From the NCBI GenBank assembly GCA_016839515.1, contig JAEOUE010000031.1, positions 1 through 58,446 on the forward strand: 58,446 nucleotides of DNA. The letters are read 5' to 3'. The notes under the pieces are model-generated. The model had not been told where the DNA came from. It made no database searches and saw nothing but the letters and a program-made list of their open reading frames with translations. How positions within the stretch are numbered: the first letter of the stretch is position 1; each line of letters starts with the position of its first letter. The stretch comes from Candidatus Hodarchaeum mangrovi (GTDB taxonomy: Archaea; Asgardarchaeota; Heimdallarchaeia; Hodarchaeales; Hodarchaeaceae). Of this stretch, positions 13,901-26,742 are shown one piece after another. The translations under genes were made by a program, and so were the position numbers.

Positions 13901-14004
13901 CGGGCCCTACGAGATTTGAACCCGCGACCTCTCTCGAGAAGATATGAATAACCAACTCTTTTGCTCCGGAGGCAAGCGCTCTGTCCATACTGAGCTAAGG
14001 GCCC
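13901..14004 (-). tRNA. tRNA-Arg(CCG) with 29-nt intron at non-canonical 41/42 (13933-13961)
   Basis: Cloverleaf GGGCCCT...AGGGCCC, anticodon arm CTTGC-CTCCGGA-GCA|AG restored by intron removal; relaxed BHB. Confidence 0.9.
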
Positions 14005-14036
14005 TTGTTATATATTTAAATAAGATCATTGAAGAA

Positions 14037-14141
14037 CGGACTCGAGGGGATTTGAACCCCCGAACCCTCTGCTTTCTCAACGAACTTTAGTAAATTTTCA
14101 TATAGGAGGCAGATGCTCTATCCATGCTGAGCTACGAGTCC
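14037..14141 (-). tRNA. tRNA-Arg(CCT) with 29-nt canonical 37/38 intron (14074-14102)
   Basis: GGACTCG acceptor, TCTGC-CTCCTA|A-GCAGA, TTCAAAT loop. Confidence 0.92.
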
Positions 14142-14171
14142 AAATTTCGTAATATATATTATTTAGGAAAA

Positions 14172-14249
14172 TGGCGGATCCGAGGGGATTTGAACCCCCG
14201 GCCTGCGACTTAGAAGGCCGCCGCTCTGTCCATGCTGAGCTACGGATCC
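14172..14249 (-). tRNA. tRNA-Arg(TCT), intronless, CCA encoded
   Basis: GGATCCG acceptor, GCGGC-CTTCTAA-GTCGC, ends GCCA. Confidence 0.95.
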
Positions 14250-24404: not shown

Positions 24405-25505
24405 TCAATTCCAATCAATGGAATAACGTAAAAGAGCTATGAGACCTCCAAATGTTTTTACTTGTTGACCATTTTCACTATTTGTTGATATGATTATTAT
24501 TCTTCCTCTATTACGATCTATTTTCTTTAAAAGTTCCTGAATTAACTCTGAATTGACTCCCTCATTTCCATGTAATAAAGAATCATTTAATATGAGGGAT
24601 TCAACTGCGCCTGTTTCTGCAATTCTATTGATAGCAGAGAATCCATAACTAATACTTTTACTTCCTTGATTCAAACGAACGAGAAATTCATCGATAATTC
24701 TTCTTTCAGCGAAAATTCTAAAATCAGCAGCTATTTTATCAATAGTCTCCGATTTTAACAATTCAGAAATTCCCACTCTATTTCCTCCACTTAAAGACCC
24801 GGCTACTACGATATTTAATTCTTCTTTTACAAATTTATCTTTTAAAAATAACGCAAAACGTTCTTTAATGAATCCAGGTCCTCCAATAATAATATTTGGA
24901 GTTTCTAAAACTATTTTTCGTCGTAAAATCCCACTTATTGTTTCAAAAAATTGATTTATTTGATTGCTTCGTGTTTTCTCTTTACTCTGCTTTCTGGAAA
25001 TATGAGATTTCTCTTGTGCGACTATTTGTACTGCATAATTATCTAAAATAGCAACACATGCATCTGTAGTGTCAATTGCGATAAGACATATCTTAGGTTT
25101 TTTACTTGCTTCCTCTGCCTCCTTCAAAAGCTGTAAATAGTACTGTGTCCATTCAGATTTTAAAATTGTTATAGTTTGAGAGATTTCAAGATTTAAAGTA
25201 TGATATGATCCAATAGCAACATGTTGTTCTGGTCCTTGAAATATTTTACCTTTTACACGTAAACGATTACTTATCGTGCTATCTTGAAAAGCCCAATCTT
25301 CTGCTTGTATTCCAATGACCATTGTAATGCGTTGACTTTCATCTCCAGATCTTCCTTCGCTACCAGCACGACGTACGCGACGACTAGATTTAGCAATAAC
25401 TTGATCATTAGGAGAAATGATATTAGATAATACATAAAGATCTGTTGGGCTATCAGGTCTCACAACAACCTTATTATTTTTAAGATCGATCTTAACAACA
25501 TGCAC
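24405..25505 (-). CDS. pelA: mRNA surveillance protein pelota (aPelota/Dom34)
   Basis: DLYVL..I...D, RLRVKG, GSYHTL, GPGFIK, GGLIALLRY. Confidence 0.93.
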   Translation of the reverse strand: MHVVKIDLKNNKVVVRPDSPTDLYVLSNIISPNDQVIAKSSRRVRRAGSEGRSGDESQRITMVIGIQAEDWAFQDSTISNRLRVKGKIFQGPEQHVAIGSYHTLNLEISQTITILKSEWTQYYLQLLKEAEEASKKPKICLIAIDTTDACVAILDNYAVQIVAQEKSHISRKQSKEKTRSNQINQFFETISGILRRKIVLETPNIIIGGPGFIKERFALFLKDKFVKEELNIVVAGSLSGGNRVGISELLKSETIDKIAADFRIFAERRIIDEFLVRLNQGSKSISYGFSAINRIAETGAVESLILNDSLLHGNEGVNSELIQELLKKIDRNRGRIIIISTNSENGQQVKTFGGLIALLRYSIDWN

Positions 25506-25531
25506 TGAAGAGTATTTCCTTAATTCATTGA

Positions 25532-25888
25532 TTAAAATAATTTCAAAGAGGATGTGATGATATCTACTTCCTTATTCATATAGGGTCCTATCCCAAGAGC
25601 AGTTGTAGTATTTGGAGGTAATTGTGTACGTCCTGCGTCATCAATTTTAACAACGATAACTCCTGTTTTTTTTAATCGAATTTCCATTTCTAAAAGTTCT
25701 GATTCAGATTCAGCTGCAAGAACCACTTTTTTTTGACCTGTTCGCCACCAAAGGTCAAAATCATTCCGCTTTTCGGCTTTTGATCTTATTGCAGAGGCAA
25801 CTGCGGCATGAGAGGCTTGTACTGCGGCTTTACCTTTTGACATCTTAAGATCTTTACGTAATACAATTATTTGTTTTGGTTCAAGCAA
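25532..25888 (-). CDS. pth2: peptidyl-tRNA hydrolase Pth2 (TTG start; the track's ATG at 25969 lies in an sRNA)
   Basis: DLKMSKGK.AVQ.SHA, GQKKVVL, DAGRTQ, LGIGP, LKLF. Confidence 0.93.
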   Translation of the reverse strand: MLEPKQIIVLRKDLKMSKGKAAVQASHAAVASAIRSKAEKRNDFDLWWRTGQKKVVLAAESESELLEMEIRLKKTGVIVVKIDDAGRTQLPPNTTTALGIGPYMNKEVDIITSSLKLF

Positions 25889-25963
25889 TTTTCGGCCACC
25901 CAAAATGTTAAGTATTCCTAATCTTCCGCCTTGAAGGTCACATTTTAATCTTTTAATAGTTAT

Positions 25964-26054
25964 AACCATCAGTGAGGTACATGAACATCATAATCGAACT
26001 TATTCGGTGTCCTGATTAAGTTCAATTCAGTTTAGGTCAGTATCATCATAGGTT
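25964..26054 (-). ncRNA. box C/D guide sRNA with hairpin insert; both guides match SSU rRNA helix 34
   Basis: C ATGATGA, 12-nt guide, D' CTGA, 10-bp hairpin, C' ATGATGT, 12-nt guide, D CTGA, AACC/GGTT terminal stem. Confidence 0.88.
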
Positions 26055-26214
26055 TAATTAGTTTAGAATGTGACTTCTACTCATTTATTTTACTTACAAA
26101 TTAAGCAGTACTTTCAGAATCTTAATTAAATTTCTTATTATGTTCAAATAGTAGAAAGATAATATATTCTGAATTATAAATTCAGAAAATCTGGAAAAAA
26201 AATTCTTATTTTGC

Positions 26215-26742
26215 TTATATAAGTAAATCTTTACCTTTGGTTATGACAATACGACAGGGTATGGGAAACTTCGCTTTTCCACGTTTTAAAGCTCCTTTCG
26301 CAACAGTCAAATATTCAGGATTTGTACGTACTAGAAGTAATCGATCATTTTCATATACTCTGGCAGCCACACTAGTTACTTTCCCAAAGGATAAACGCAT
26401 ACCATTTTGTATACGATCTGCTCCAGCTCCTGTCATCATTTTATTTTCACGTATTTTATGATGAGGATACACGCAAACTTTGAAATGATAGCTTTCTCGT
26501 CCTAATGATCGTGTTAAATATCGATTTACGTGAATTCGTGCAGCTTCCAACGCGTTATGGGAGATTTGAGCCCTTTCATCAGCAAAAAGAGTTAATTCAA
26601 TCGGAAACTCTTTGCCAGGAGCACCAAATTCGAACGAACGTATTTTAGGCTCAGGACCTCCTTTTATATATTTCTTACGTGTGTAGGCTGGTCTATCGAT
26701 CCTTGTATAACATGAAGCTGGACGTCGTCCCATTTTAATCAT
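26215..26742 (-). CDS. rpl10e: 50S ribosomal protein uL16 (L10e)
   Basis: MGRRPASCY, ALEAARI, RENKMMTGAGADR, GMRLSFGK. Confidence 0.97.
   Translation of the reverse strand: MIKMGRRPASCYTRIDRPAYTRKKYIKGGPEPKIRSFEFGAPGKEFPIELTLFADERAQISHNALEAARIHVNRYLTRSLGRESYHFKVCVYPHHKIRENKMMTGAGADRIQNGMRLSFGKVTSVAARVYENDRLLLVRTNPEYLTVAKGALKRGKAKFPIPCRIVITKGKDLLI

Follow-up and report, generated by a model that had tools for sequence, protein, structure and literature searches.

The locus and its genes

On the minus strand of the window, i.e., the whole stretch of 58,446 nucleotides that was analyzed, an element of 91 nt lies between a gene for the ribosomal protein uL16/L10e and one for the peptidyl-tRNA hydrolase PTH2. 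The overall best explanation of 25964..26054, judged from its sequence, is that it is very probably the gene of a box C/D sRNA from a Heimdallarchaeia/Hodarchaeales-type Asgard archaeon. The flanking genes and the predicted parts of the element, in their order along the minus strand, are the following:

26215..26742, minus strand: uL16/L10e ribosomal protein gene, the upstream neighbor (Pfam PF00252, E 1.2e-29)
25964..26054, minus strand: whole predicted box C/D sRNA, 91 nt (match of the covariance model R1, 25961-26057)
26054-26051 with 25967-25964, minus strand: 4-bp terminal stem, AACC with GGTT, read from the sequence
26043..26049, minus strand: C box ATGATGA (RTGATGA in 19/21 homologues, GTGACGA in 2)
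26031..26042, minus strand: D' guide TACTGACCTAAA, 12 nt; position 5 upstream of D' is C26035
26027..26030, minus strand: D' box CTGA, invariant in 21/21 homologues
25992..26026, minus strand: D'-C' spacer, 35 nt, read from the sequence
25993..26026, minus strand: internal stem-loop from the MFE fold, with the stem 26026-26017 pairing with 26002-25993 and the loop at 26016-26003
26006..26012, minus strand: conserved loop heptamer GGACACC, a candidate accessory antisense element
25985..25991, minus strand: C' box ATGATGT (TGATGT invariant in 21/21 homologues)
25973..25984, minus strand: D guide TCATGTACCTCA, 12 nt; position 5 upstream of D is C25977
25969..25972, minus strand: D box CTGA (CTGA in 19/21 homologues, CCGA in 2)
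25532..25882, minus strand: PTH2 peptidyl-tRNA hydrolase gene, downstream, conserved part only (Pfam PF01981, E 3.9e-36, residues 32-145)

A single T separates AACC from the C box and another separates the D box from GGTT in the minus-strand sequence, and the C' box has T instead of A at its last position. The element thereby displays the terminal C and D boxes with their stem, the internal D' and C' boxes and the 12-nt spacing on both sides by which archaeal box C/D sRNAs are recognized. The short K-loop and the total length of ~50-70 nt that also belong to this class are not seen, the spacer being 35 nt and the whole 91 nt; the available portion of PMC7994747 likewise describes archaeal sRNAs as 50-70 nt long. 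The original prediction had spoken of textbook C/D'/C'/D boxes with two 12-nt guides, which holds for the boxes and the guides, whereas the 35-nt spacer is atypical. That prediction left the strand unnamed and passed over the structured D'-C' spacer.

The order uL16, sRNA, PTH2, Pelota recurs in 21/21 loci of the genus, with the Pelota-like gene also on the same strand here. The long open reading frame called for PTH2 has its ATG at 25969 and would overlap the D box. This start is doubtful because the conserved part of PTH2 begins beyond the sRNA in the other 20 loci of the genus (~40-115 nt, and in most of them ~85-100 nt, separate the model match from the start of the tblastn match); thus, the ATG at 25969 is probably not the true start and the overlap with the D box probably not real. 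A scan of the locus for bacterial-type promoters and terminators yielded nothing useful, and no terminator-like site was found after the sRNA. AT-rich, TATA-like stretches occur 45-60 nt upstream in several homologues. As for the partner proteins, the same assembly encodes PF01269 (E 3.1e-77), PF01798 (E 1.2e-66) and PF01248 (E 1.4e-26) domains: genes for fibrillarin, Nop5 and L7Ae are all present, those for Nop5 and fibrillarin on one contig and ~180 nt apart.

Conservation within the genus

The element was recovered by blastn in 17/18 congeners, and a covariance model built from these blastn homologues found it in 21/22 genomes of the genus and in 0/61 other genomes of the class. Among the 21 homologues, the spacer stem, the flanking sequences and the outermost positions of the guides vary, while the boxes are largely, and the guide cores fully, fixed: both the D' core ACTGACCTA and the D core CATGTACCTC are invariant in 21/21. 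The same two homologues that carry the C box GTGACGA also carry the D box CCGA; this paired T-to-C change affects the two residues that are opposed as U-U in the K-turn. When the entire 4-Mb genome was scanned with a strict four-box pattern, 2 sites matched, as against none in the reversed control. The second of these sRNA candidates has a spacer of 3 nt; hence, the spacer hairpin described below is specific to the sRNA at 25964..26054.

Predicted pairing of the two guides with helix 34 of 16S rRNA

Searches of the genome's own assembly (348 contigs, 91% complete) returned no match to 16S or 23S rRNA, and pairing was scored on full-length 16S genes from three congeners (G002, G016 and G007). 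On all three, the D guide TCATGTACCTCA is paired with GGAGGTGCATGG at 11 of 12 positions (nine Watson-Crick and two G-T pairs), and the D' guide TACTGACCTAAA forms 10 Watson-Crick pairs with TAGGTCAGTA. The D' duplex comprises only these 10 bp, with two mismatches adjoining the D' box, and one internal G-T pair of the D duplex is kept in 21/21 homologues. In both duplexes, a C faces a G in Watson-Crick pairing at the fifth position upstream of the box, i.e., at D+5 and D'+5. On these congener 16S genes, both guides accordingly show what is taken to define a guide for rRNA or tRNA, namely a complementarity of at least about 9 bp in which the fifth nucleotide before D or D' forms a Watson-Crick pair. 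An alignment with E. coli K-12 rrsH, which is ungapped here, places the D+5 nucleotide at E. coli 1051 and the D'+5 nucleotide at 1197.

The Rfam archaeal SSU consensus structure locates the two target Gs in helix 34, one on each strand; in G002 16S numbering, it pairs G986 with C1152 and G1142 with C995. The footprints of the guides span 13/15 pairs of the helix, with both partners lying under guides in three of them. Binding of both guides would therefore exclude helix 34. The earlier reading of a D guide with two G-U pairs directed at 1051, of a 10-nt D' pairing directed at 1197, and of the two targets as the two strands of helix 34 is thus reproduced on the congener genes and the consensus structure.

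The strength of these matches was gauged by shuffling. The observed 16S score was reached by 2/1000 shuffles of the invariant 9-nt D' core and by 14/1000 of the invariant 10-nt D core, as against 88/1000 (D') and 81/1000 (D) shuffles of the full 12-mers. A perfect Watson-Crick target that might explain the conserved G-T pair, GAGGTACATG, was sought separately and rejected: the genome contains it 4 times where 7.6 occurrences would be expected, one of the four being the antisense strand of the sRNA gene itself, and it was absent from 23S rRNA.

The hairpin in the D'-C' spacer

The D'-C' spacer folds into a stem of 8-10 bp closed by a loop of 14-15 nt. In the alignment of the 21 homologues, 98.1% of the stem cells are paired and 7/8 pairs have changed on both sides. 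None of 500 shuffles reached the observed values, and sliding the partner strand left at most 45.7% paired. The stem begins directly after D', and three nucleotides stand between its other strand and the GA of C'. By this arrangement, the C'/D' layout is predicted to be that of a true K-turn rather than of the archaeal K-loop, the form that the available text of PMC6009581 describes as general for archaeal C'/D' motifs.

The loop is itself conserved. GGACAC is invariant in 21/21 homologues and the seventh base is retained in 20/21, the one variant loop being GGACACA in G031. With the two preceding bases, the heptamer of the window reads CAGGACACC (26014-26006). It is complementary to the 16S stretch GGTGTCC(TG) at E. 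coli 1081-1089, with a 7-nt core at 1081-1087 and 9 nt in the window. This complement lies between the targets of the two guides, 22 nt downstream of the D-guide site; in the Rfam SSU structure, it runs from the 3' strand of h36 across a linker of two bases into the 5' strand of h37. It is the sole site in the three 16S loci with their 1.5-kb flanks, barring one inside an insertion, and none was found in the rRNA leader or spacer within those flanks. The heptamer also matches three times in 23S rRNA; among shuffled heptamers, 75/1000 match 16S and 279/1000 match 16S plus 23S. Loop and target are both unvarying wherever a 16S gene was assembled, so that they never vary together; searches for the 16S gene of G031, G032, G075, G284 and four g23 genomes found none assembled.

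As the loop adjoins no D box, it would have no methylation-directing role. That it is a third, non-methylating antisense element docking on h36/h37 of 16S rRNA is given about one chance in three; alternatively, the loop may bind a protein or have some other structural role. The closest parallel is with the "extra base-pairing" C/D snoRNAs of yeast, e.g., snR70, in which, according to the accessible part of PMC3116282, methylation is aided by conserved elements of the D'-C' region that pair close to the modified site; the likeness would lie in a conserved non-guide element near a methylation site. In contrast to the yeast elements, the predicted Asgard element is part of a hairpin loop, and its complementarity extends over only 7-9 nt, at a distance of 22 nt from the guide duplex. 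The portions of the archaeal sRNA literature that were covered (PMC4644070, PMC7994747 and PMC6009581, each in part) describe no such accessory element.

Related double guides in other archaea

When 400 genomes from the phylum were searched for the D' guide core in register behind a C box, the pattern was recovered in this genome, 18/21 other genomes of the genus and 4/4 genomes of the Asgard genus g23, with none in the reversed control. The g23 sRNA is compact, with a spacer of 4-5 nt, the same D' register (1197) and a D guide, TATGCACCTCTG, on the 5' strand of h34, the register of which differs by one nucleotide and points to E. coli 1050. A corresponding scan with the D-guide pattern gave 18 matches outside genera g1 and g23, with 2 genomes matched in the control. 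Two of the 18, in G064 and G284, were taken by eye as C/D sRNAs; the other 16 were rejected, also by eye, as being without a second box pair or within apparent coding sequence. In G064, which belongs to another genus of Heimdallarchaeia, the D' guide pairs with the genome's own 16S at the 1051 site and the D guide with the distal 3' strand of h34; the sRNA of G284 has the 1050 register.

Beyond the Asgard archaea, the C box with the D' guide was found in 5/301 sampled Thermoproteota genomes and in none of the control, and in 0/201 genomes sampled from the phylum to which a Methanobacteriaceae MAG belongs. Two of the five Thermoproteota matches (G574 and G603) also have a D guide for 1051 and hence address both sites of the pair; spacers of 11 and 14 nt are found in them, the longer one forming a small hairpin. 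The original prediction had raised the question of whether sRNAs of TACK archaea or Euryarchaeota target this pair, and for Thermoproteota the answer is that they do (2/301). The D' core ACTGACC at 1197 is thus common to the genus under study, g23, G574 and G603, as is a second guide on the 5' strand of h34, which is also present in G064. On the other hand, the compact relatives have spacers of 4, 11 or 14 nt, are without the conserved loop, stand in other gene neighborhoods and carry C where the studied genus has a G-T wobble, while G064 has its guides swapped and a different 3'-strand site.

Several of these differences are matched on the side of the rRNA. In the genus, 16S GGTAGG goes with a guide ending in ...CCTAAA, whereas in Thermoproteota GGCAGG goes with ...CCTGCT or ...CCTGTA. 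Similarly, G064 combines the 16S stretch GCTGGTGCATGG with the guide ACATGCACCAGT, the genus under study GGAGGTGCATGG with ...ACCTCA. This lineage-to-lineage co-change of guide and target, read from sequences, is the best available support for real pairing.

A partial likeness extends to the Rfam family sR6 (RF01829), whose consensus carries a D guide, AAUGCACCUCAA, with complementarity to the same 5'-strand sequence of h34. As controls, Methanocaldococcus jannaschii, Sulfolobus acidocaldarius and Methanosarcina acetivorans were all matched by this family. The sR6 register, however, is one nucleotide off (1050), its other guide is unrelated to the 3' strand of h34, and a search of this genome with sR6 gave no match. 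By these sequence matches, the site pair is not Asgard-specific, and helix-34 guides, this pair included, are older, or more recurrent, than the Asgard archaea. The exact nucleotide predicted to be methylated drifts by one between lineages, a pattern described for archaeal methylation hotspots in the part of PMC4644070 consulted.

The same source provides the nearest analogs for the arrangement of the targets. In Nanoarchaeum equitans, sR17 (h28) and sR15 (h30) likewise direct their D and D' guides to distant strands that later pair, and a chaperone role in which such strands are brought together and released after methylation was proposed earlier for opposite-strand double guides (PMC4644070, in part). 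The N. equitans targets are h28 and h30 as against h34 here, the terms "helix 34" and "h34" being absent from the main text of that paper as far as it was available; moreover, the Asgard sRNA has a structured spacer of 35 nt instead of a K-loop. A full-text literature search for Asgard C/D sRNAs found no paper describing them.

Equivalence to eukaryotic modification sites

In eukaryotes, two methylated guanosines of helix 34 come into question, namely yeast Gm1271 (snR40; human Gm1328, SNORD32A/U32A) and Gm1428 (snR56; human Gm1490, SNORD25/U25), both placed in this helix in the accessible part of PMC2794176 and both conserved in Arabidopsis, human and yeast (PMC3511168; PMC8817022). For the second, the Rfam snR56 consensus guide ACACAGACCUGUaCUGA has the same register as the D' guide. 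Its D'+5 position thus coincides with the first G of AGGUC, the nucleotide addressed here. Further, cmscan aligns the GACCUG..CUGA of snR56 with the same letters of a compact Asgard relative, and the consensus guides of Dictyostelium DdR1 and plant snoR25 agree with the 1197 register. For the first, PMC5464676 describes a primer as the complement of yeast 18S nucleotides 1315-1336. The archaeal stretch that corresponds to it lies 50 nt after the target G, a spacing equal to that in yeast on the assumption of no yeast indel. Of the two registers allowed by the span of the primer, only the chosen one gives a G at yeast 1271. The nine-nucleotide distance to ac4C1280 also fits this equivalence. 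Hence, the sequence comparison supports the D' and D sites as the nucleotides of yeast Gm1428 and Gm1271, respectively. The original prediction had asserted both equivalences: that of 1197 with Gm1428 is borne out by the snR56 consensus, that of 1051 with Gm1271 by way of primer coordinates and spacing only.

The RNAs themselves are less readily connected than the sites. Comparison of the window with the Rfam families of SNORD25/snR56 (clan CL00049) and SNORD32-33/snR40 (CL00054) gave no match at E values up to 10, and the compact g23 relative scores 19 bits against snR56, the cut-off of which is 54. At gathering cut-offs, Rfam finds three tRNAs only in the window; at permissive thresholds, the sRNA gives weak generic C/D matches, the D half alone matching only sR55, and that weakly. 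Eukaryotes employ two separate snoRNAs for the two sites, as against one double guide here, and the likeness to snR56 and snR40 is confined to the boxes and to the guide dictated by the rRNA. Because of this confinement, common descent and convergence are inseparable, a problem already stated in PMC3511168. An earlier suggestion that one Asgard sRNA could be ancestral to both eukaryotic guides thus loses its Asgard-specific form, the same site pair being present in Thermoproteota and no significant Rfam score to the eukaryotic families being obtained. A different eukaryotic model is offered by snR4, which pairs with 18S 1264-1271 and 1286-1290 and thereby binds h34 without methylating it (PMC5464676). 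An snR4-like acetylation guide was considered for the present sRNA and rejected, the 16S here having CCA at the place corresponding to the eukaryotic motif CCG.

Alternative explanations

The possibility that short motifs came together by chance in AT-rich intergenic DNA draws on the brevity of the box motifs and on the full 12-mers, whose match to 16S is equalled by about 8% of shuffles. It is refuted in practice by the conservation: presence in 21/22 genomes, invariant guides and a covarying stem, to which is added the rarity of the four-box pattern in the 4-Mb genome and its absence from the reversed control, so that its probability is practically negligible. The constant position of the element directly upstream of PTH2 on the same strand raises another possibility, that of a cis-acting leader of the PTH2-Pelota genes, e.g., an L7Ae-bound K-turn controlling translation, with the rRNA match being secondary. 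No terminator-like site follows the element, and binding of L7Ae to K-turns in mRNAs has been proposed (PMC5539422, in the part available). Such regulation, however, would not require two rRNA-matched guides in the D+5 register, and uL16, PTH2 and Pelota were not found within ~1.5 kb in 5 g23 loci and at the G064 locus; a leader of this kind is considered most improbable.

Two further alternatives accept a C/D RNA and differ in what it does. A genuine C/D RNP might act mainly or only as a chaperone of assembly or processing, rather than as a methylase at one or both sites, along the lines of U14 domain A, snR190 or the snR4 type, with the hairpin loop as its key element. Guides and loop together would hold h34, h36 and h37 open, the conserved loop is without an adjacent D box, and snR4 offers a eukaryotic precedent for an h34 binder that does not methylate (PMC5464676). 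Against this, the Watson-Crick C-G pair falls exactly at D+5 and the boxes keep the exact 12-nt spacing, as in active guides, compact relatives devoid of the hairpin retain the same registers, and the snR4-like form of the idea is faced with CCA in the 16S instead of the acetylation motif CCG; this course is regarded as quite unlikely. It is also conceivable, if very unlikely, that just one guide methylates and the other is an anchor or is decaying. The two D' mismatches beside the box and the two G-T pairs of the D duplex would suit such a state, one active site could be affected by the atypical internal K-turn, and half-active double guides have been accepted in published surveys (PMC4644070, in part). 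Yet both cores are invariant in 21/21 homologues despite drifting flanks, and both guides are kept in other lineages. The preferred reading accordingly remains that of a box C/D sRNA with two guides for helix 34.

Proposed mechanism and significance

Under this preferred reading of a double-guide sRNA, the transcript would fold such that the C and D boxes, closed by the terminal stem, form a K-turn, as expected from the biochemistry of archaeal C/D RNPs. L7Ae would bind both K-motifs, with Nop5 and fibrillarin assembling thereafter, and by the D+5 rule fibrillarin would 2'-O-methylate the Gs at E. coli 1051 on the 5' strand and 1197 on the 3' strand. Since 13/15 pairs of h34 are blocked while both guides are bound, the RNP would act on nascent 16S rRNA, meeting it before the head domain and h34 have folded. 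It would then keep the two strands of h34, which are ~156 nt apart, next to one another until they are released and so serve as a transient clamp for folding, and the loop GGACACC might dock on h36/h37 as a third antisense element in the manner of the yeast extra base-pairing. The concept of a folding clamp or chaperone as such is not new, having been published for other helices (PMC4644070, in part).

A more far-reaching scenario, which must be considered unlikely as a whole, can be built on this mechanism. An old archaeal h34 double guide, shared with Thermoproteota, would have become a three-site, eukaryote-style RNP in Hodarchaeales-type Asgard archaea, with an internal K-turn helix replacing the K-loop, a loop docking on h36/h37 and three segments of the 16S head held together; the archaeal h34 double guide would, in turn, be the direct forerunner of the LECA guides U25/snR56 and U32/snR40, which were later separated onto two RNAs.

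Eukaryotic methylation guides with an archaeal counterpart at the equivalent nucleotide are very rare: a survey has counted one to three of them, with homology unproven (PMC3511168). To these, the predicted targets would add two sites of LECA age, both in helix 34 of the decoding site. The occurrence of one sRNA for both sites in Asgard archaea and Thermoproteota offers a testable case for relating the single guides of eukaryotes to the double guides of archaea. Very few C/D sRNAs seem to be encoded in this genome, and the retention of the one at 25964..26054 suggests a real need at helix 34. Among archaeal sRNAs, it is unusual to find an additional covarying hairpin whose loop is conserved; if the loop pairs with rRNA, it would constitute a prokaryotic precedent for the accessory guides of snoRNAs, and if the three-site reading is true, extra base-pairing and long structured internal regions would predate the eukaryotes.

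Conservation of the sRNA locus and its D duplex

The box C/D sRNA lies within a row of translation-related genes whose arrangement is conserved at all 21 of the loci found in the genus:

24405-26742, minus strand: uL16, sRNA, PTH2 and a Pelota-like eRF1-fold protein

Within the sRNA itself, the D guide (25973-25984, minus strand) carries in the middle of its predicted duplex a T that stands opposite G988 of the 16S rRNA (in the numbering of the congener G002), and this T is retained in every one of the 21 homologues from the genus, whereas the guides of other lineages have a C at the same position. A search for an alternative target of the D guide, in which an A would face this T, found none. 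The boxes vary in two of the homologues, L055 and L056 (from the congeners G016 and G001), where a D box CCGA occurs together with a C box GTGACGA; this amounts to a double T-to-C change at K-turn positions that face each other.

In several congeners, sequences that flank the sRNA at a distance of 20-70 nt on its upstream side and of 10-30 nt on its downstream side are mutually reverse-complementary (e.g., CCTTCA... with ...TGAAGG, or AATCGG with CCGATT; loci examined: L040, L044, L046-L048, L037, L041 and L043), and judging from this complementarity they may form an extended precursor or processing stem.

Insertions in rRNA genes and probable introns in tRNA genes

Two of the 16S genes give matches well beyond the usual ~1475 nt, namely 2225 nt in the congener G007 (L006) and 1792 nt in G064, of another Heimdallarchaeia genus (L206). 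The excess length points to large insertions, which would be introns or expansion segments; in G007, one such insertion is located in the gene's 5' half. The window also holds tRNA genes, recognized by their matches to tRNA models:

13901-14249, minus strand: three consecutive tRNA genes

Since two of the three matches are 104-105 nt long against the 71 positions of the model, these two genes probably contain introns.

C/D machinery and a second sRNA candidate in the genome

Elsewhere in the same assembly lie the following:

Contig C195, 18154-19667, same strand as each other: fibrillarin and Nop5 genes
Contig C138, offset ~37451 (reverse-complement coordinates), minus strand: second strict four-box C/D sRNA candidate, from the four-box pattern

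The fibrillarin and Nop5 genes are separated by ~180 nt, and the open frame of Nop5 spans 426 aa. The C138 candidate has a canonical D'-C' spacer of 3 nt and weak complementarity to rRNA. As it is the sole other strict four-box candidate genome-wide, canonical C/D sRNAs seem to be very few in this genome.
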